Part shown: one piece after another, positions 2,697-64,000 of the stretch
Position numbering within the stretch: the first letter of the stretch is position 1
Layout of the letters: every line of letters begins with the position of its first letter
Virus record (IMG/VR): IMGVR_UViG_3300020048_000026
Span: 1-64,000 of that record
Source: a virus
Length of the DNA: 64,000 bases
Direction: 5' to 3' (one strand)
Position numbers and translations under genes: made by a program
Notes under the pieces: model-generated
Told to the model about the DNA's origin: nothing
The model's database searches: none
Seen by the model: only the letters and a program-made list of their open reading frames with translations

Positions 2697-3064
2697 GGGG
2701 GTGGATTGATTTGACAGTATTTGTATAATCAGGATATCAGCAAGCAACGCATTTTCTAATAAGCGTTTAATAAATTAGTAGGAACAAACAATAAATGGCG
2801 AAGCACACATGCATATCGTAAACTCAAATTCAACAATGTCAGTTTCTGGAACTGTTGTTGAACGTGGAGTTCTCGTAGCCTAACAGAGAAAACCAGAAAA
2901 TCTTTTTATTAAACTATTCTGAGATATAATCGGAAATGTTTACCAGACTTAGTAATTACTTGCCAAAAATTACATATTTTTGTTCATTTTAGAAAAAATG
3001 TACTAAGCTTGTAGATGATACCGAAAGGCATTATTGAACTCGGGGTCGCACTCCGACACCTCCA
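2697..3064 (+). ncRNA. ssrA: tmRNA
   Basis: 5' GGGGGTG pairs with 3' CACCTCC-A, including the G3-U alanine pair. 5' end continues TTTGAC. A T-arm precedes the 3' end. Internal tag ORF 2797-2883 follows ATAAAT and reads GEAHMHIVNSNSTMSVSGTVVERGVLVA*. Confidence 0.92.
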
Positions 3065-3109
3065 CAATGTACTCAAAAGCATATCATAAGAACTGCTCAG
3101 AGTCAACCA

Positions 3110-4901: not shown

Positions 4902-5384
4902 ATGATAACTAAATTTAAAATATTTGAAAAATGGGATATTTCACAAATTCCTTCTGGTTTGACAAGTCGCAGATTTGCTGATGAATTCCACAAATTAAGA
5001 AATGCTTCTGTAGATCAGAATATACCATCTATTCCCGGTAGATTTTATTGGAAAATACATAAAGATTCTTTAGGTATTATTGAAGCGTCTCTTGATAAGA
5101 TTGGTGCACCAAAAAGTTTGTTTTATGAGATAAAAAGTGATATAAATTCTAATTCTCTTAGATCGTCTACTGATTTAGAAATTTGGTATACTAAAGACTG
5201 GAAAAAAACTGGTAAATATACTTGGCTACATAAAGAATGGAGTTGGAGAGAATGGGATCACGGAAAGAAACTTAAAGGTTATCATGATGATAGATATAAA
5301 GCAGGATATAAATATATGGGAGTTGTAATGTTATCTAAGGAAGAAAAAGAGTTTTATTCAATTTCCCATTTATACAATTTATAA
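4902..5384 (+). CDS. Hypothetical, CTS-like leader (MITKFKIFE) and YNL C-terminus
   Basis: Shared terminal motifs. Confidence 0.6.
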   Translation: MITKFKIFEKWDISQIPSGLTSRRFADEFHKLRNASVDQNIPSIPGRFYWKIHKDSLGIIEASLDKIGAPKSLFYEIKSDINSNSLRSSTDLEIWYTKDWKKTGKYTWLHKEWSWREWDHGKKLKGYHDDRYKAGYKYMGVVMLSKEEKEFYSISHLYNL

Positions 5385-8591: not shown

Positions 8592-9824
8592 ATGAAATAT
8601 ATAAAAAATTATGAAAATTTTTCAATTTTTGATACCTTAAAAACAAGTGATAAAAATAGTTTTATTTTAATTTATAATTCATTATATGAATATCATTTAA
8701 GTTTAAATGAAAAAAATATGATAGAGTTAGAATATGGTTTATTAAATGAATCTTGGTTTACTGATCTAGTGGATAAAGGGAAAAGAGGTGTATTACAAAT
8801 TAAATCTGATGCTGGTCAAATTTTGGTTGATTTAGCAACTAAAGCAAGAGATATTTTAGATTTTGCAAAGCAATTAGCAAATAAAATTGGAGAGTATATT
8901 AAGGCACAATTTAATAATTTATTAACTAAAGTTAAAAATAAGGCATTAAAGGATGCACCTTTTGTTAAAGAATTGGTTGATTTCATAGAGAAAAAAAATA
9001 CAAGTTATTTAACAAAATATGTTAAAAGTGTTGGCTCCATTATAGAGTATATTACAAGTGGAAAATTAATTACTAGCTTAGTCACAAGATTATCAGAATT
9101 GTTTAGTAATGCTCTAAAATTAGGAACAAATGAAGGTTTAAGTTATTTAGAGAATGATTTTTTATTTGAAGAAGTTGAAGGAGAAGAAAAGAAAAATTTT
9201 TTACAAAGATTAGCAGATAAAATTAAATCTTATCCACCTTTTTCTTGGATTCCAAAAATAGAAGATTTACTTAAAAAGGGTATTATTTATGTTGGTGGTT
9301 TGGTTGATAAGTTTTTTGCTTGGCTTGAAGGTAAAGGCGCTAATGAAGCAATTAATCTTACAAAGCAACTCAGTGCGCATGGCGGTGAAAGTTCTTTTGG
9401 TAAAGGATTATATTTTCTATTTCAAATCTTGGAATTATATATTCAATATTTAATAATGGGACAAATAGATAAATTTAAAGGTTTTCTTAATAAAATTGTT
9501 ACAGGAGCAGAAGATCCAATAAAAACTGCAACCGATCAAATTAAAGATCAATCATTAGAACAAATTTGGAAATTAATAGGAATAAACGGTGAAGAACTTA
9601 TTAATAATGCTGTTAAAAAAATACCATATGTTGGTCAACTTTTGGCTGTTATGGATATGTTAGTAGTGGCAGTTGGTTCTTACTTAGCAGTAAAACCAAG
9701 TTTAGATAGGATAAAAAATCCAGAGCAAAAACCAACACAACCAGGTGAACAACCTAGTCAAGGTGAACAACCTAGTCAAGGTGAACAGCCAGTTGAGGTA
9801 AATAATACTGTTCAACAATCCTAA
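8592..9824 (+). CDS. Helical protein with CTS-like leader, hydrophobic segments and GEQPSQ tail repeats; candidate internal/ejected protein
   Basis: MKYIKNYE, internal LNE sites, hydrophobic helix near the C-terminus. Confidence 0.5.
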   Translation: MKYIKNYENFSIFDTLKTSDKNSFILIYNSLYEYHLSLNEKNMIELEYGLLNESWFTDLVDKGKRGVLQIKSDAGQILVDLATKARDILDFAKQLANKIGEYIKAQFNNLLTKVKNKALKDAPFVKELVDFIEKKNTSYLTKYVKSVGSIIEYITSGKLITSLVTRLSELFSNALKLGTNEGLSYLENDFLFEEVEGEEKKNFLQRLADKIKSYPPFSWIPKIEDLLKKGIIYVGGLVDKFFAWLEGKGANEAINLTKQLSAHGGESSFGKGLYFLFQILELYIQYLIMGQIDKFKGFLNKIVTGAEDPIKTATDQIKDQSLEQIWKLIGINGEELINNAVKKIPYVGQLLAVMDMLVVAVGSYLAVKPSLDRIKNPEQKPTQPGEQPSQGEQPSQGEQPVEVNNTVQQS

Positions 9825-53353: not shown

Positions 53354-55432
53354 ATGAGTGAAAGAGTTGATGAATTTATCTTAACCACAGATATAATTGA
53401 AGATATTGAACAAAGAGAAAATCTAGGAAAAATTCTTAAAAGACATGAAAAAGTATGGTTTTCAAACACTAAAGGTGTTCGTAAACCATATTTAACATTT
53501 GCAATGACTGATGATGAATTTGAAGAATATATTAAATGTAAAATTAATATACAATATTTTGCAGAGAAATATTGTCAAATTAAAAGAGAAGATGGTACCG
53601 TTGGACCAATGACACTTCGTGATTATCAAAAAGATATTATTGACCTCTATACAAAAAATCCAAGAAGTATTTTAATGGCTTCAAGACAAACTGGTAAAAC
53701 AGTTTCAGCCGCAATTGTTATTATTCATTTTGTTTTATTTAATGATGATAAAGGGGTTATGATTGTAGCAAATAAAGGTAAAACCGTTAAGGAAATTATT
53801 AGAAAAATTAAAGATATTTATAAATTACTACCATTTTTTATAAAAAAAGGCGTTACTAACTGGAATGAAACTCAAATAGCATTTGAAAATAATTCACGTA
53901 TTCAAACAGAAAATAGAACAAAAGATCCATCAATCGGTTTTACAATTGACCTTTTATATCTTGATGAGTTCGCCCACATACCAGATAATTTTATTCGTGA
54001 CTATTATGGTGCTATTGTACCAGTCGTTTCATCTGTTAATAACTCTCGTATTATAATTACGTCTACTCCAAATGGATATAATATGTTTTGGGAATTAATG
54101 ACTGCCGCAGAATTACCCGATGAGGATCCAAATAAAAATCCATATAAAGCAATGAGAGTCTTATGGACTCAAGTACAAGGTCGTGAAGATACTAAAATAA
54201 AAATTTTAGATGTAAAATTAAAGAAATTTGGATTCAATAAACAACAAGTATTAAGAGAAATAAGAGAAAAAGGTAATATAACACTTTATAAAAAACACGT
54301 TAATGATGATATAATTGATTGTGTAAAATATGATGTTGAAGATGAAAAAACCTATATTGATAATATTAGAAAAATTCGTATAAATGGTATTCCTTTACCT
54401 GAACTTGCTGTTGTCTCCAATTGGCAAGAAGAAGAAACAAAACTTTTAGGCTCACCTGATAAATTTGACCAAGAATATGGATTACACTTCGTTACTGGTG
54501 ATAAAATCTTATTCAATAAAGAAACTATTGATTTATTAAAAAGTAAACAAATACCATTTGATTATATGGAATTACCACAATTTAAAAGATTGAACATTCC
54601 TTACGATTCATTGAAATTTGTTAGAAATTTGGATTTATTTAATCCACTCCGAGCAAAAGATTATTATATTTTAATATCAATTGACTTATCTGAGGGGTTA
54701 GCCAAAGACTATTCTGTTATAAACATATTTAGGCTCTCTCTGAGAGATAAATTAGAAATAGAGAAGTACAAGTATGAAAGTTTATATGAGTTGTTCAAAA
54801 TTGAGCAAATTGGCTTATATCGCAATAATCTTTATTCAATTAGAGAACTTGCACATATTTTTTATTTAATTGCATTTGAAGTATTTAATCCTGAAAAAGT
54901 TAAAGTTGTACTAGAATACAATACATACGGTTCAGAATTTTTAACACACCTACCCAATGTTTTTGATGGTGAAAATCAGTATTCAAATTCTGTCTTTTTG
55001 AGATTTAAACATAATAGAGAAGATTTAGTAGGAAAAATAGGATTAAAACTTACTAAAGATAAACATCTTATTATTGATAAGGAATTTCAACAATCAGTTA
55101 GAAATAGAAGAATGGTGCTACATAGCGATATTAATATTAGCGAAATTACAACATTTAGTAAACACGAAACTACTTCTGGTAATGTAACATATAGAGCAGA
55201 ATCAGGAAACGATGATGTTGTAATGTCAACAATCACATTATCAACTTGTTTTGATAATGTCGGTTATAAAAATCTCGTTGATTTATATATCAATAATGAT
55301 TTACAAGGTGATGTTTTAAGATATATTGAAAATATAACAAGTAAATCAACTAATACTGGTAGTGTTGTAGGTGCCTATAATAAGATTTACAAAAGAAGAC
55401 CAGAGTATTCAAACATGAGATATCCGAGATAA
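53354..55432 (+). CDS. gp17: Terminase large subunit (T4 gp17-like)
   Basis: LRDYQ, SRQTGKT, YLDEFAH, TSTPNG, FDQEY, IDLSEG..KDYS, DDVVM. Confidence 0.95.
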   Translation: MSERVDEFILTTDIIEDIEQRENLGKILKRHEKVWFSNTKGVRKPYLTFAMTDDEFEEYIKCKINIQYFAEKYCQIKREDGTVGPMTLRDYQKDIIDLYTKNPRSILMASRQTGKTVSAAIVIIHFVLFNDDKGVMIVANKGKTVKEIIRKIKDIYKLLPFFIKKGVTNWNETQIAFENNSRIQTENRTKDPSIGFTIDLLYLDEFAHIPDNFIRDYYGAIVPVVSSVNNSRIIITSTPNGYNMFWELMTAAELPDEDPNKNPYKAMRVLWTQVQGREDTKIKILDVKLKKFGFNKQQVLREIREKGNITLYKKHVNDDIIDCVKYDVEDEKTYIDNIRKIRINGIPLPELAVVSNWQEEETKLLGSPDKFDQEYGLHFVTGDKILFNKETIDLLKSKQIPFDYMELPQFKRLNIPYDSLKFVRNLDLFNPLRAKDYYILISIDLSEGLAKDYSVINIFRLSLRDKLEIEKYKYESLYELFKIEQIGLYRNNLYSIRELAHIFYLIAFEVFNPEKVKVVLEYNTYGSEFLTHLPNVFDGENQYSNSVFLRFKHNREDLVGKIGLKLTKDKHLIIDKEFQQSVRNRRMVLHSDINISEITTFSKHETTSGNVTYRAESGNDDVVMSTITLSTCFDNVGYKNLVDLYINNDLQGDVLRYIENITSKSTNTGSVVGAYNKIYKRRPEYSNMRYPR

Positions 55433-56940: not shown

Positions 56941-56944
56941 CTTG

Positions 56945-57017
56945 CCCTAAGTGTAGGACTTGAACCTACGACCAACTATTTTAGAGATAGCTGCTCTACC
57001 AACTGAGCTAACAAAGG
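56945..57017 (-). tRNA. tRNA with CUA anticodon (amber suppressor), copy 1
   Basis: CCTTTGT TA GCTC AGTTGGTA GAGC A GCTAT CTCTAAA ATAGT TGGTC GTAGG TTCAAGT CCTAC ACTTAGG G; two U-U mismatches in the acceptor stem. Confidence 0.85.
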
Positions 57018-57023
57018 ATTTTG

Positions 57024-57096
57024 AGATCCAGGTGGGGATCGAACCCACGACCAACTATTTTAGAGATAGCTTCTCTACCAACTGAGATACAAGATC
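57024..57096 (-). tRNA. tRNA with CUA anticodon (amber suppressor), copy 2
   Basis: GATCTTG TA TCTC AGTTGGTA GAGA A GCTAT CTCTAAA ATAGT TGGTC GTGGG TTCGATC CCCAC CTGGATC T; one U-U mismatch in the acceptor stem. Confidence 0.88.
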
Positions 57097-58366: not shown

Positions 58367-58585
58367 TTAGATGTTATAATTGTTTAATTCATTGAAAAAT
58401 TCGTAAACTTCTTTTAATTTTTTAACCATTTCATTTCTATCACTCTCGTCAAAATATCCCATATAAGTTCCTTCATACCAACCGCCTCCACCAGATATTG
58501 ATTCACTTTGATGCCCAGTATAAGAACATTCACTTAGAGATTCTAATTCATTAATGACCTCTAATAATAATTTATCTTCAAGCAT
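58367..58585 (-). CDS. Hypothetical protein, translationally coupled to the Pth2-like gene
   Basis: GGAGG precedes ATG 58585, which overlaps the end of the upstream gene. Confidence 0.55.
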   Translation of the reverse strand: MLEDKLLLEVINELESLSECSYTGHQSESISGGGGWYEGTYMGYFDESDRNEMVKKLKEVYEFFNELNNYNI

Positions 58586-58967
58586 AAACCACCTCCTCTC
58601 CTTTGAAAGTATTTTTATCAATTCCATTAAATATATTGTATTCCTTTAACATTAAAGGTAAAGATGAGGTAAGCCTACGAGTTTTATCAGAAGGCTCAAT
58701 AGCAATCGCAGTAATCTGATTCCTAATATCAGGTTCACGAAAAACGACAAATTTTAAATGATTTTTTTCCAATTTTGAAATGAGAGAATATAATTCTTCT
58801 TCATTTTCTACAGAAAGCTGTGCTAAATAAGGGTCGTTGTACCAATAATTGGAAATTTGGTGATGTTCAACGAAAAACATAATCGCAGCATGGGTTGCTT
58901 GCGTTGCCTGATATCCAGGACTTAAATCTCTTCTTGTTACTGTTGTTAATTTGTTAACCTACGTCAT
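58578..58967 (-). CDS. Pth2-like peptidyl-tRNA hydrolase with in-frame TAG at codon 3
   Basis: MT*VNKLTTVTRRDLSPGYQATQATHAAIMFF...FREPDIRNQITAIA. The R.DL..G...Q..HA signature lies upstream of the track start. Confidence 0.8.
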
Positions 58968-59017
58968 GATTTCTAAATTGTTTTTAATGTATATATTAAT
59001 TTTTGTGTTTTGTTTTA

Positions 59018-59025
59018 CAAATGTA
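59018..59025 (-). promoter_or_regulatory. Bacteroidota-type -7 element (TACATTTG) upstream of the Pth2-like gene
   Basis: Matches TAnnTTTG; a TATATA motif also lies at about 58989-58999. Confidence 0.6.
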
Positions 59026-59055
59026 TGGAACTTTTTTAATAAAAAAAATTTTAAA

Positions 59056-59289
59056 AAATTAATTATCTCATAGCCGCGATCTTGTTTCTAATCTCACATT
59101 TATCTAAGTCTTTCAACTTCCTTTCCAACGAAAGGTGCTCCAACCCGACCTCACAGGGAAACCGACACCCTCAGTCTGTTTGGATTGCTACTTGTGTGGT
59201 GATAACGAATTTCTTCTCCCACAGTAGGTTTTGTAGTCGCGAACTTCCTCTAATATTTCTACCAGCGTAAGATCGAATAATTAATTTTT
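59056..59289 (-). ncRNA. rnpB: Minimal RNase P RNA (type A catalytic domain, specificity domain almost absent)
   Basis: P1 aaaattaattat/ataattaatttt; P2 ATCTTAC/GTGAGAT; P3 CTGGTA-GAAA-TATTAG; GAGGAAG; P4 AG(T)TCGCGA/TCGCGGCT; P5 CTAC/GTAG-CAA; P6 AAACC/GGTTT; P7 TGTGG/CCACA; P15 TCCAA/TTGGA; AGATAAAT; AAACAAGA. Confidence 0.88.
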
Positions 59290-59701
59290 AAAATTCAGGT
59301 TCGTTATAAATAACTTTTGCTTTTGCATCTTTTTTTACACCATTTTTGAAATAATATCTACTTGGATCATCACCAAATCCATTATCCCAATCAATATCCA
59401 ATTGAAAAACTAAAGTTGGATATTTTTTTGAAAATTCTTTAATATCATCTTCAATTTTATAGCCACTACCTGGCTCATTTGAATTACCATCAGAATTTAG
59501 TAAATATGAACAATCATCACTTGTGTCTAAAAGTTCATCTATGATTGTGTTGCTTGATACAATCATATCAATTTCATCTGAAGGTGAACCACATTTTGAA
59601 CAAAATTGACCATTGATTTGTGTTTTACAATTTGGACAAAATGGTACTTTATTTGTAATTTCACCAATAATTTTTAATTTAAAGTAATTTTCGTAACTCA
59701 T
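59288..59701 (-). CDS. Double zinc-ribbon protein
   Basis: CPNC...FCSKCG; FSKKYP. Confidence 0.65.
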   Translation of the reverse strand: MSYENYFKLKIIGEITNKVPFCPNCKTQINGQFCSKCGSPSDEIDMIVSSNTIIDELLDTSDDCSYLLNSDGNSNEPGSGYKIEDDIKEFSKKYPTLVFQLDIDWDNGFGDDPSRYYFKNGVKKDAKAKVIYNEPEF

Positions 59702-60350: not shown

Positions 60351-60611
60351 CTATTTCAAATTTTTTTGTGTAATAGGTTCATTACATTTAGGACATTTTA
60401 TATATCCCATACCCGATTCAGTTACAGACAAATAATCAAATGTATGCTTACACTTTGGACAAATAACAAGATTTCCTATCCTATCAAGAACTTTTTGTTT
60501 TTCATCATCTGTCATTCTCTTCCATTTAGCAATTTCTTTTCCAGTTCGTTTACAACCTTTACAAACTCCATCTACTAAACCACATTTATCTACACAAGGA
60601 CTCTTTATCAT
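60351..60611 (-). CDS. DUF1289-like Cys-rich protein plus zinc ribbon
   Basis: SPCV..C.....CKGCKRT..EI.KW; CPKC twice. Confidence 0.8.
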   Translation of the reverse strand: MIKSPCVDKCGLVDGVCKGCKRTGKEIAKWKRMTDDEKQKVLDRIGNLVICPKCKHTFDYLSVTESGMGYIKCPKCNEPITQKNLK

Positions 60612-61150
60612 AACGATTTATTATTAATTTTTAAATATTTCAAAGGTACACTATCAGTTAACCAAACACCATTTTCACTCAAGTAAAATTTATAACCATC
60701 AGTATTCATTGCAGCTGAGTCAACTTCCAATATAATTGGAGCATTTCTTTTAGAATACCTTTTTCCTACACTATATGCAACTTCAATATCATCAGTTAAA
60801 TGTACATGAAGCCTTCTCATTTTTTCTAAACCCTTACCCCTAATAATCTTTTCATAACTATCAGGACTTGTACCATGATAAAGTACCCTTGGAGGTCTAA
60901 TCGCCTTTAATCCAACATCAACCTTAACCGAATGACCCTGAGATGCGCGAATTTTAGACTTATCCTGATTATAAGCCAATCTTTTCTTATCATTCGTATC
61001 TACAATATGATTCAATTCTTCCTGTGTTATACCAACCTTATTTAAAAGTGATTTAACATCAACATACCCACTAGTATCCATTATTAAATCCTCTGAATTG
61101 TGCCTTAATAGATAAGTTATCTTCTTTCCTATTTGTATATAATCTTTCAT
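60608..61150 (-). CDS. kptA: RNA 2'-phosphotransferase (KptA/Tpt1)
   Basis: LLRH, DKKR, IRASQGHS, LYHGT, RLHVHL, SENGVWL. Confidence 0.95.
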   Translation of the reverse strand: MKDYIQIGKKITYLLRHNSEDLIMDTSGYVDVKSLLNKVGITQEELNHIVDTNDKKRLAYNQDKSKIRASQGHSVKVDVGLKAIRPPRVLYHGTSPDSYEKIIRGKGLEKMRRLHVHLTDDIEVAYSVGKRYSKRNAPIILEVDSAAMNTDGYKFYLSENGVWLTDSVPLKYLKINNKSL

Positions 61151-61607: not shown

Positions 61608-62032
61608 TATTTTCCTTTTAATTTTTCTAATTTTTTCCTTCTCTGTTCCTTAATCGGATCCTCCATTTTAATTTTTTCAAAATCCGCACTCTCTGAATAA
61701 TATCCATTAGACGAACCATACCAACGAATTGTTACATAACCTTTTACAGTTGCTAATTTATAAAAAGTCCAAGTTGCTGATTCATCATAACCATCATCTG
61801 TTTTTGTTGCATCCTGAGTTGATTCTTCTGCCTGTAAAATACGACTTCCAATTAAATCATCTAAATCACCTTCAATATCTTCAATATACACATTTTCACA
61901 GCAATCTTGTGAATGATACATTTTATATTCTGCACCATTCGCAAGATAAAAATAGACAAATTCATCATTAATTCTTTCAATTTTAATGATGAATTTATTC
62001 AATAAGTCACTAATATTAACATGTTCCCTCAT
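61607..62032 (-). CDS. Conserved phage protein (HSQDCCENV...WYGSSNGYYSE) with RxxKLxxL tail
   Basis: Recognisable phage motif; ends QRRKKLEKLKGK. Confidence 0.7.
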   Translation of the reverse strand: MREHVNISDLLNKFIIKIERINDEFVYFYLANGAEYKMYHSQDCCENVYIEDIEGDLDDLIGSRILQAEESTQDATKTDDGYDESATWTFYKLATVKGYVTIRWYGSSNGYYSESADFEKIKMEDPIKEQRRKKLEKLKGK

Positions 62033-62553
62033 TATTCAAATTTAATTTTTAATCCCATATTCTGCATTGCTAATAATGCTTCTGCATTTCCCTTAGCATC
62101 ATTCACAGGATTATGATCATGAGTTGTTTTTCTTAACTTTTTCCAACTTGACCTTGAATCCATCTTCATACCACAATATAAATCACCTATCCTACGACTT
62201 GACCATCCAAAAGGATTAACTCCTCCATTAAACTCTTGAAAATAAAGATTAATCCAACCTGCATCATATCCATTATTATCCGATATTAAAATAGGCTGAC
62301 CAATTGATACCGATTTAATCCACTCCGCAAATTCTTTCATAACCTTAACTGGTTCATCAAAAGTTTCATGCTCCTCCCTTGAAAATCCACTAATCGCAAG
62401 AGCCTCCGGAACCCAAATACCAGATATCGGTCTTACTTTACCATAAAACGTTTTACTTAAACTAGGCTCCACCACAACCGCTCCAAAACAAACCATTGAG
62501 TGCCTTAAAAAATTCTGTCCATCTGACTCTACATCTACTACTATAAAACTCAT
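62032..62553 (-). CDS. DEDDh 3'-5' exonuclease
   Basis: VDVESDG, N.GYD, HNPVNDA. Confidence 0.85.
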   Translation of the reverse strand: MSFIVVDVESDGQNFLRHSMVCFGAVVVEPSLSKTFYGKVRPISGIWVPEALAISGFSREEHETFDEPVKVMKEFAEWIKSVSIGQPILISDNNGYDAGWINLYFQEFNGGVNPFGWSSRRIGDLYCGMKMDSRSSWKKLRKTTHDHNPVNDAKGNAEALLAMQNMGLKIKFE

Positions 62554-63507: not shown

Positions 63508-63598
63508 TGGCGGAGAGTGTAGGATTCGAACCTACGGGACCCTTACGAGTCCTACAGTTTTCAAGACTGTCGCGATAGACCAACTCTGCCAACTCTCC
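63508..63598 (-). tRNA. tRNA-Ser(UGA)
   Basis: GGAGAGT/ACTCTCC-G-CCA acceptor, loop CTTGAAA, long variable arm, TTCGAAT. Confidence 0.95.
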
Positions 63599-63631: not shown

Positions 63632-64000
63632 TTAAATTAATATTAACCTATCTACACCAATCGCAAACCCAATTCCTCCATCATAACTACCACCACCACA
63701 AATTTGTTTCTGCGCACCCAATTTATCACAAGATATTTCAAATCCTTTTCCATCCTTATAGTAATCTAACCCCCTCTTCACATCTGTATTTATATCAAAA
63801 TCTGGTGTTACTAATTCAATTATTTTACTAGATATTTCTATAAGTTCATCTAAATAGTCCTTATTTGGATTCAAAATTTCAACTCCAAATTGTGTAAATT
63901 CCCTATATCTTCCTGCTTGTGGTGATTCACCTCTAAAACATTCTCCAATGTAAAATAATTTTACGTTTTTTTGATATTTTAATTTTTCCTTCGCTATTAA
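63632..64000 (-). CDS. HisRS-like class II synthetase catalytic core, 5' end outside the window, with no anticodon-binding domain
   Basis: Frame is open to the window end: motif 2 FRGESPQAGRYREFTQFGVE, RGLDYY, GGGSYD, motif 3 GFAIGVDRL, then stop. Confidence 0.85.
   Translation of the reverse strand, partial: LIAKEKLKYQKNVKLFYIGECFRGESPQAGRYREFTQFGVEILNPNKDYLDELIEISSKIIELVTPDFDINTDVKRGLDYYKDGKGFEISCDKLGAQKQICGGGSYDGGIGFAIGVDRLILI

Follow-up and report, generated by a model that had tools for sequence, protein, structure and literature searches.

The 64,000-nt stretch of DNA analyzed here (the window) comprises positions 1 to 64,000 of the IMG/VR virus record IMGVR_UViG_3300020048_000026, which extends over 154.9 kb and is 22% complete by CheckV. 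Within a minus-strand block of translation genes toward the end of the window lies an RNA gene that resembles the RNA subunit of ribonuclease P (RNase P) (Table 1). This copy is of a stand-alone class. It begins at the stop codon of a zinc-ribbon open reading frame (ORF; 59288-59701) and ends in a U-tract, as members of this class typically do. The gene boundaries were set from the P1 helix alone and agree with the interval 59056-59289 given in an initial annotation of the window, which had described a phage RNase P RNA that keeps the catalytic domain (C-domain) and lacks the specificity domain (S-domain). This core description is supported by covariation among relatives, by matches of relatives to Rfam, by matches in the reverse direction and by the viral carriers of the family.

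Table 1. Elements of the RNase P-like RNA gene and other features of the window. Positions are those of the window; nucleotide numbers of the RNA in the text count from position 1 at 59289 on the minus strand toward 59054.
Feature	Position	Strand	Details
RNase P-like RNA gene, whole	59054-59289	(-)	236 nt, outer P1 end to outer P1 end
P1, 5' strand	59274-59289	(-)	Partner 59054-59070; 14 + 2 bp; one bulged A on the 3' side
P2, 5' strand AUCUUAC	59267-59273	(-)	Partner GUGAGAU at 59091-59097; 6/7 pairs change on both sides across relatives
P3 hairpin CUGGUA-GAAA-UAUUAG	59250-59265	(-)	Base of the helix covaries
J3/4 GAGGAA (CR-I) and P4, 5' strand AGU[U]CGCGA	59237-59250	(-)	Bulged U at 59242
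P5, 5' strand CUAC	59233-59236	(-)	Partner GUAG at 59188-59191; 3/4 pairs covary
P6, 5' strand AAACC	59227-59231	(-)	Pseudoknot with GGUUU at 59159-59163 in the P17 loop
P7 UGUGG/CCACA	59195-59223	(-)	Encloses 19 nt (59200-59218) in place of the S-domain; 4/5 pairs covary
J5/15 GCAA	59185-59188	(-)	G shared with P5; invariant in 5'-anchored relatives; R1 aligns it to E. coli GGAGCAA
P15 UCCAA/UUGGA, L15, P16 GACU/GGUC, P17 AGGG/CCCU	59139-59184	(-)	Each covaries; 92-98% of cells paired
Two optional P18-region hairpins CCUUUC-GUUG-GAAAGG and AAGUU-GAAA-GACUU	59106-59135	(-)	Second with GNRA loop, L18-like
J18/2 AGAUAAAU (CR-IV), P2 3' strand, J2/4 UAGAAACAAGA (CR-V start)	59080-59105	(-)	Invariant or nearly so in the 5'-anchored set
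P4, 3' strand UCGCGGCU	59072-59079	(-)	Pseudoknot partner of 59237-59245, about 160 nt downstream
U-rich tract just past P1	59030-59053	(-)	Read from the sequence
tmRNA-like gene	2697-3067	(+)	44.3 bits (Rfam cut-off 47), E 1.5e-17 in the record; missed by ARAGORN
Terminase large subunit	53354-55432	(+)	Opposite strand to the RNA gene
Two tandem tRNA-CUA genes	56944-57096	(-)	5 nt apart; 1 and 2 acceptor-stem mismatches; no encoded CCA
PTH2 peptidyl-tRNA hydrolase	58578-58967	(-)	Starts ATG ACG TAG; third codon TAG
Tpt1/KptA RNA 2'-phosphotransferase	60608-61150	(-)	146 bits
3'-5' exoribonuclease-like ORF	62032-62553	(-)	Weak match
tRNA-Ser	63508-63598	(-)	Within the translation-gene block
Class II aminoacyl-tRNA synthetase fragment	63632-64000	(-)	Continues past the window edge

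All helices of the C-domain can be drawn on the minus strand, from P1 to P7 and from P15 to P17, followed by two hairpins in the P18 region, and these include every helix and the pseudoknot that the initial annotation had listed. The helix P4 consists of 3 bp, a bulged U and 5 bp, in the same register as A66-G74/C353-U360 of the E. coli rnpB sequence with which it was compared. The linkers read GAGGAA, GCAA, GGGU, AGAUAAAU and ACA-A; a proposed AGCAA linker is one nucleotide too long, as its leading A belongs to P5, while GAGGAA, AGAUAAAU and ACA-A were named correctly. In the internal loop L15, ACAG on the 5' side faces GGG and then U on the 3' side. The junction J18/2 (59098-59105) runs directly into the 3' strand of P2, and J2/4 contains ACAAGA. 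The adenosines of J5/15, which correspond to the A248 region of E. coli, adjoin the cleavage site in bacterial RNase P RNA, and the GGU of L15 is the binding site for the 3'-CCA of the tRNA in bacteria.

The space enclosed by P7, put at about 19 nt in the initial annotation, was counted at exactly that length and contains a GAA-GAAA-UUC mini-hairpin flanked by the conserved unpaired nucleotides A73, G84, U86 and A90, each of which is 80-95% conserved across the family. The arrangement U86-N-N-N-A90 resembles a T-loop motif in sequence. A kink-turn in the same stub was considered and rejected by eye, as the 3' side ends in NA with no conserved GA.

The sequence of the window copy is unconvincing on its own, and the case for it rests on relatives. 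These were collected in two ways. An exact 16-mer from J3/4-P4 was found in 41 viral contigs, 34 of which carry the whole RNA while the rest are GC-rich chance matches (the 5'-anchored set), and a pattern for the 3' half of the molecule, which leaves P1-P7 and P4 unconstrained, recovered 94 more stretches. Each set is anchored on a conserved motif, whose conservation would be a circular result in that set; the conservation of a motif is accordingly cited only from the set that does not anchor it. A covariance model, R1, was built from 22 sequences with the nested helices only, P1 being trimmed and P4 and P6 left out; its E-values are rough because calibration was shortened. R1 matches the window copy at 59064-59279 (178 bits, E 2e-43) and produced 31 and 58 further matches in the two sets. 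Members of the family occur in more than 100 viral contigs, the longest of 518 kb, as well as in the 735-kb phage LR756501. The latter, an uncultured phage of 735,411 bp (LR756501/LR756503), gave the sole match to the window copy among 50,697 phage records, at 79.7% identity, and BLAST searches of the same records with three members embedded in tRNA arrays returned either this phage or no match. The RNA measures about 175-240 nt across the family. In 82 relatives P7 encloses 18-130 nt (median 24), the span of P3 varies from 10 to 49 nt, and the P18-region hairpins are missing from 56.

The comparison with LR756501 alone reveals compensatory changes in P1, P5, P6, P7, P16 and P17; for example, P5 changes from CUAC/GUAG to CAAC/GUUG, P6 from AAACC/GGUUU to CAGCU/AGCUG, and a U-A pair in P1 is replaced by G-C. 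The sequence of P1 differs but its complementarity is kept in almost every relative, and the stems of the P18 region, where present, also show compensated changes (AAGUC-GAAA-GACUU, CACAG-GAAA-CUGUG, GUCC-GCAA-GGAC). In alignments of 33 and 59 relatives from the two sets, standard pairs occupy 90.6% and 91.5% of the cells, as compared with 30-44% when the partners are slid by 1-3 columns, although the rates for the nested helices come from alignments fitted to those same helices. Both sides have changed in 37 and 44 of the 54 pairs, respectively, and none of 500 shuffles equalled the observed covariation. The two pseudoknots provide an unbiased test because both are absent from R1. In the set that left P4 unconstrained, double changes occur in 7 of its 8 pairs and 97.7% of its cells are paired; all 5 pairs of P6 covary. 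Compensatory changes in P2, P4 and P5, proposed at the outset as a check on the prediction, are thus present in 6 of 7, 7 of 8 and 3 of 4 pairs. Identity between members drops to about 70-80% with pairing still above 90%.

Unpaired nucleotides are conserved as well. Among 45 distinct relatives collected with no constraint on this part of the molecule, GAGGAA and the bulged U of P4 reach a conservation of at least 95%, and the same level is reached by GCAA, GGGU and AGAUAAAU; in the 5'-anchored relatives, CGGGUUG is almost invariant. We conclude that the nucleotides of the catalytic core are under purifying selection.

The link to bacterial RNase P RNA was established from both directions. One relative (L057) matches the bacterial class A model RNaseP_bact_a (RF00010) with 70.7 bits (E 1.5e-19 in a 49-kb search, 1.2e-21 over 401 bases), another (L074) matches RNaseP_arch (RF00373) with 59.1 bits (E 4.7e-14), and two more (L090, L068) gave weaker matches; R1 scores the members matched by Rfam at 78-107 bits at identical coordinates. 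The alignment of L057 to RF00010 lines up P1, P2, P3, GAGGAAAGUC, P5, GCAA, P15-P17, P18, AGAUAAAUG and AACAGAA...GCUUA, and places 25 nt against 110 model positions of the S-domain. In the reverse test, the 3'-half pattern was run over 185,579 prokaryote species, with one genome each, followed by R1. This phage-only model picks out genuine class A rnpB genes, five in all, of which four lie in metagenome-assembled genomes (MAGs) of WOR-3, with E-values of 7e-10 to 1.6e-5 and RF00010 scores of 205-243 bits. In one of them (L152), R1 aligns over the full length of the gene, matching P1-P5 and P15-P1', with 163 nt against 39 model positions in between. The WOR-3 class A genes (L152:27-361 (+), L136, L139, L186) have a C-domain unusually near the phage form, and the L152 alignment contains no P18 between P15 and AGAUAAAU. 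At the E. coli locus, the best R1 match lies inside the annotated rnpB gene (7.7 bits, E 0.02), its 3' half being aligned correctly and its 5' half mis-aligned. For the J18/2-J2/4 region, R1 aligns the phage RNA to E. coli AGAUGAAUGACUGUCCACGACAGAA, and the corresponding region of L057 aligns to the RF00010 consensus. The phage RNAs are homologous to RNase P RNA and have lost the S-domain.

All of the C-domain features that define class A are present in the phage RNA. It has the long P4 helix with a bulged U formed from conserved region (CR) I (GAGGAAAGUC-like) and CR-V (ACANAA...GGCUUA-like); a CR-IV (AGNNNNAU in bacteria, AGAUAAAU here) located in J18/2 and followed by the 3' strand of P2; the P15-P16-P17 arm with the P6 pseudoknot to the P17 loop and the GGU of L15; and adenosines in J5/15 beside P5. 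The S-domain (P8-P14 with CR-II and CR-III), which takes up about 160 nt in bacteria, is absent, and no S-domain-like match that could supply it in trans was detected across the 154.9-kb record. The window copy did not match the archaeal type T model (RNaseP-T, RF02357) at E<=10.

The genomes that carry the RNA are viral. The five genomes of 476-735 kb and the 154.9-kb source record contain one copy each, and several carrier contigs are complete by CheckV. Two carriers of 494 kb and 476 kb (L009 and L052; records G002 and G004) are labeled as provirus in IMG/VR and are 98% complete by CheckV. Among the 185,579 prokaryote species genomes, the miniature form was found in only four MAG contigs, all of them phage-like; 14 tRNAs lie on one of them, a contig of 3 kb, and two GOLLD RNAs on another. 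The latter, Saccharofermentanales MAG contig JBBAEW010000030.1 (L181:2318-3902 (+)), has GOLLD matches of 182 and 155 bits located 2-3 kb from the miniature RNA. On another carrier contig, a phage tmRNA (transfer-messenger RNA) with a tag peptide predicted by ARAGORN (L075:1263-1644 (-)) lies 1.2 kb from the miniature RNA.

The association with tRNA genes is close. Over 88 loci, predicted tRNAs are in all cases on the strand of the RNA; in 35 of these a tRNA lies no farther than 150 nt from one or other end of the RNA (usually 5-20 nt), in 17 there is one on both sides, and in 56 there is one within 2 kb. What the family follows are ordinary, complete arrays of 20-38 tRNAs covering all specificities, and not suppressor tRNAs. 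A run of at least six T in eight follows P1 in about 60% of the relatives that have no tRNA within 60 nt downstream, as compared with 10% of those followed by a tRNA. In the window copy, the U-rich tract past P1 likely corresponds to the end of the transcript. A scan for sigma-70 promoters around the gene gave 8 sites as compared with 7.2 in shuffled sequences, which is no excess, and no promoter was assigned.

The explanation that we favor, with a probability of roughly 0.72, is that the gene encodes a miniature class A RNase P RNA of giant phages, a ribozyme that would mature phage tRNAs either with the host RnpA protein or alone. A discrete transcript, ending at P1 and the U-tract, would be made during infection, and the RNA would cleave the 5' leaders off phage tRNA precursors and possibly off the tmRNA precursor, providing extra or independent maturation capacity for the large set of phage tRNAs. 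Transcription, catalytic activity, protein partner and substrates are our inference. A working ribozyme is suggested by the link of the gene to tRNAs and by conservation of those parts that carry out the chemistry and hold the acceptor end of the tRNA in bacterial RNase P, namely the bulged U of P4, the J5/15 adenosines, the GGU of L15 and the P15-P17 arm stabilized by P6. Host RnpA is perhaps the partner, and would be the simplest candidate since the phages encode none. Going further, the S-domain-less ribozyme could represent an independent tRNA pathway, using host RnpA or no protein, which tolerates non-canonical tRNAs and sustains phage translation during a shutdown of host RNA synthesis or host RNase P; we put this at somewhat below an even chance.

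Several observations weigh against the proposed ribozyme. The check by Rfam covariance models suggested in the initial annotation fails for the window copy itself: no RNase P family was reported in the whole window in gathering mode, nor for 58900-59450 at E<=10, and RF00010 found nothing at E<=10 in the whole 154.9-kb record. The fold of the single sequence has a minimum free energy z-score of -1.49, which is not significant, and mis-pairs P5 and P7. Even the best relative, at 70.7 bits, remains below the gathering threshold of RF00010 (100 bits). No gene for RnpA (PF00825) was detected in the source record or in the five relatives of 476-735 kb, which is also compatible with the use of the host protein. 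In vitro, loss of the S-domain greatly weakens catalysis by bacterial C-domains, and the phage RNA may need a partner to be active in vivo. The window gene is situated outside any tRNA array, with the nearest tRNA 2 kb away. Finally, the presence of the RNA does not correlate with gene-encoded CCA ends, which in the arrays range from 0/24 to 24/24, and the GGU of L15 is not attributable to encoded CCA because this varies from none to all between carriers.

With the loss of the S-domain, by which the tRNA elbow is measured, the RNA could be an active enzyme whose main targets are no longer ordinary tRNA precursors but mismatched CUA tRNAs, the tmRNA precursor, polycistronic phage transcripts, or host RNAs recognized through tRNA-like or guide-like pairing. 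The nearby CUA tRNAs, called mismatched in the initial annotation, contain one and two mismatches in the acceptor stem, and they lack an encoded CCA; a tmRNA-like gene, also anticipated there, is present at 2697-3067 with a score just below the cut-off; and the conservation of A73, G84, U86 and A90 in the P7 stub suggests that some contact has been retained. We nevertheless regard such a change of specificity as unlikely, because the family follows complete, ordinary arrays rather than suppressors and because the GGU of L15 and the adenosines of J5/15, which bind canonical tRNA ends, are conserved. The same nucleotides, together with the bulged U and the P6 pseudoknot, would be needless in a non-enzymatic decoy that sequesters host RnpA or competes with the host RNase P RNA so as to shut down or redirect host tRNA maturation. 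Such a decoy would fit the lack of a phage RnpA gene and the retention of P2/P3, J18/2, J2/4 and P15, through which bacterial RNase P RNA contacts its RnpA, and a role of this kind was at one time discussed for the poxvirus RNase P-like RNA, according to PMC3001073. An inhibitor of tRNA processing encoded among the tRNA genes of the phage itself, in the same orientation, would however be self-defeating, and we consider this explanation even less probable than a change of specificity.

Half of the molecule has been lost and the window copy goes undetected by Rfam, as might be expected of a functionless pseudogene decaying from a captured host rnpB. But the RNA has been kept in more than 100 contigs, as a single copy in each complete genome, with compensatory changes in every helix, invariant core nucleotides and intact pairing between members that have diverged substantially in sequence; the covariation effectively refutes a remnant of this sort, which we hold to be very improbable. 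A protein-coding origin has the lowest standing of all. A 62-aa ORF with a TTG start is listed on the plus strand at 59082-59270, and in about one third of the relatives the antisense frame is open over at least 90% of the length. The ORF has no family match, however, and the frame is closed in most relatives; relatives are separated by indels that break the triplet frame (such as one of 2 nt in P3 relative to LR756501), entire hairpins are gained or lost, and the substitutions compensate one another within RNA helices instead of being synonymous. The pattern of indels and substitutions excludes this ORF as the explanation.

In one relative (L038), an insert of 3.8 kb that contains an Rrf2-nrdD-nrdG cassette divides the RNA gene into two parts (5089-5126 and 8928-9058, +) at the single-stranded linker joining the 5' strand of P6 to P7, and both halves of the RNA are intact in sequence. 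An intron was considered as the cause and rejected, as no Rfam intron was found at E<=0.1. The split could be either a recent disruption or a sign of a two-piece ribozyme held together by P1, P2, P4, P5 and P6, in which case the phage may assemble the enzyme from two separately transcribed halves.

Further translation genes surround the window gene. At least nine more tRNAs are located on the minus strand at about 64.3-66.05 kb of the record, in an array that spans 63.5-66 kb; the RNA gene lies between this array and the two CUA tRNAs, which are 2 kb downstream of it. The PTH2 gene has a higher Pfam score when its in-frame TAG is read through (31.8 bits, profile positions 2-113 of 115) than when the ORF is taken from past the TAG (19.4 bits), and it is situated 1.5 kb upstream of both tRNA-CUA genes. 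The combination of this TAG codon with tRNA-CUA genes suggests amber read-through or recoding in the phage. The tRNA-CUA pair is preceded by a hairpin 7 nt upstream and followed by a hairpin with an A-run downstream.

RNase P RNA, which trims new tRNAs, is one of the few universal ribozymes, and to our knowledge it has so far been treated as a cellular or organellar gene. A full-text literature search returned no report of a phage-encoded RNase P RNA, and a 2024 review makes no mention of one. If the phages do possess an independent RNase P, it would be the first virus-encoded RNase P with catalytic activity, and a minimal ribozyme of the bacterial type that occurs in nature. A natural RNase P RNA of 175-240 nt would show what evolution retains when the catalytic half suffices, offer a compact ribozyme for structural and mechanistic work, and allow a direct test of the importance of the S-domain and the protein in vivo. 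It would also add tRNA 5' processing to the translation functions of giant phages, alongside tRNAs, tmRNA, aminoacyl-tRNA synthetases, PTH2 and Tpt1, and it accounts for a recurrent unannotated gap within phage tRNA arrays. A dedicated covariance model is needed, because the present Rfam models miss most members of the family.

Among the known systems, bacterial class A RNase P RNA (RF00010; M1 RNA of E. coli, encoded by rnpB, 377 nt) shares with the phage RNA the order and topology of P1-P7 and P15-P18, as well as CR-I (GAGGAA...), CR-IV (AGAUAAAU), CR-V (ACA.A...GGCUA), the GCAA of J5/15 and the GGU of L15. The phage RNA differs in that it is only 236 nt long, with 19 nt replacing P8-P14, a long P1, an extra hairpin between P15 and P18, and a P18 that is optional in the family; in P4, it has G-C and U-G pairs where E. 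coli has A-U and G-C. Unlike its bacterial counterpart, it is encoded by phages, often within tRNA arrays. The archaeal type T RNAs of Pyrobaculum and other Thermoproteaceae (RF02357), which measure about 200 nt, are likewise C-domain RNAs in which nearly all of the S-domain has been lost, and according to PMC3579882 they work without it as the RNase P of a cell. Type T combines an archaeal sequence with archaeal proteins, whereas the phage RNA belongs to class A in all of its diagnostic features (P6, P16, P17 and the GGU of L15). The likeness between the two is a case of convergent reduction and not of common descent.

Engineered ribozymes that consist of the C-domain only, of which the B. 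subtilis C-domain with the protein is reportedly one, have the same parts list as the phage RNA and cleave tRNA precursors without an S-domain, with the protein helping. Isolated bacterial C-domains such as Eco CP RPR are described as cleaving pre-tRNA at lower efficiency (PMC5839562), and because such ribozymes are active, activity would be expected of the phage RNA as well. The engineered forms are laboratory truncations and much less efficient, whereas the phage RNA is natural, has been under selection and has additions of its own, namely the conserved nucleotides of the P7 stub, three GAAA tetraloops and the extra hairpin. The nearest viral precedent is the RNase P-like RNA of orthopoxviruses (camelpox), for which PMC3001073 reports some similarity in secondary structure and no cleavage of pre-tRNA in vitro. 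That inactive RNA comes from a eukaryotic virus; the phage RNA, by contrast, has the full conserved catalytic core, with support from covariation.

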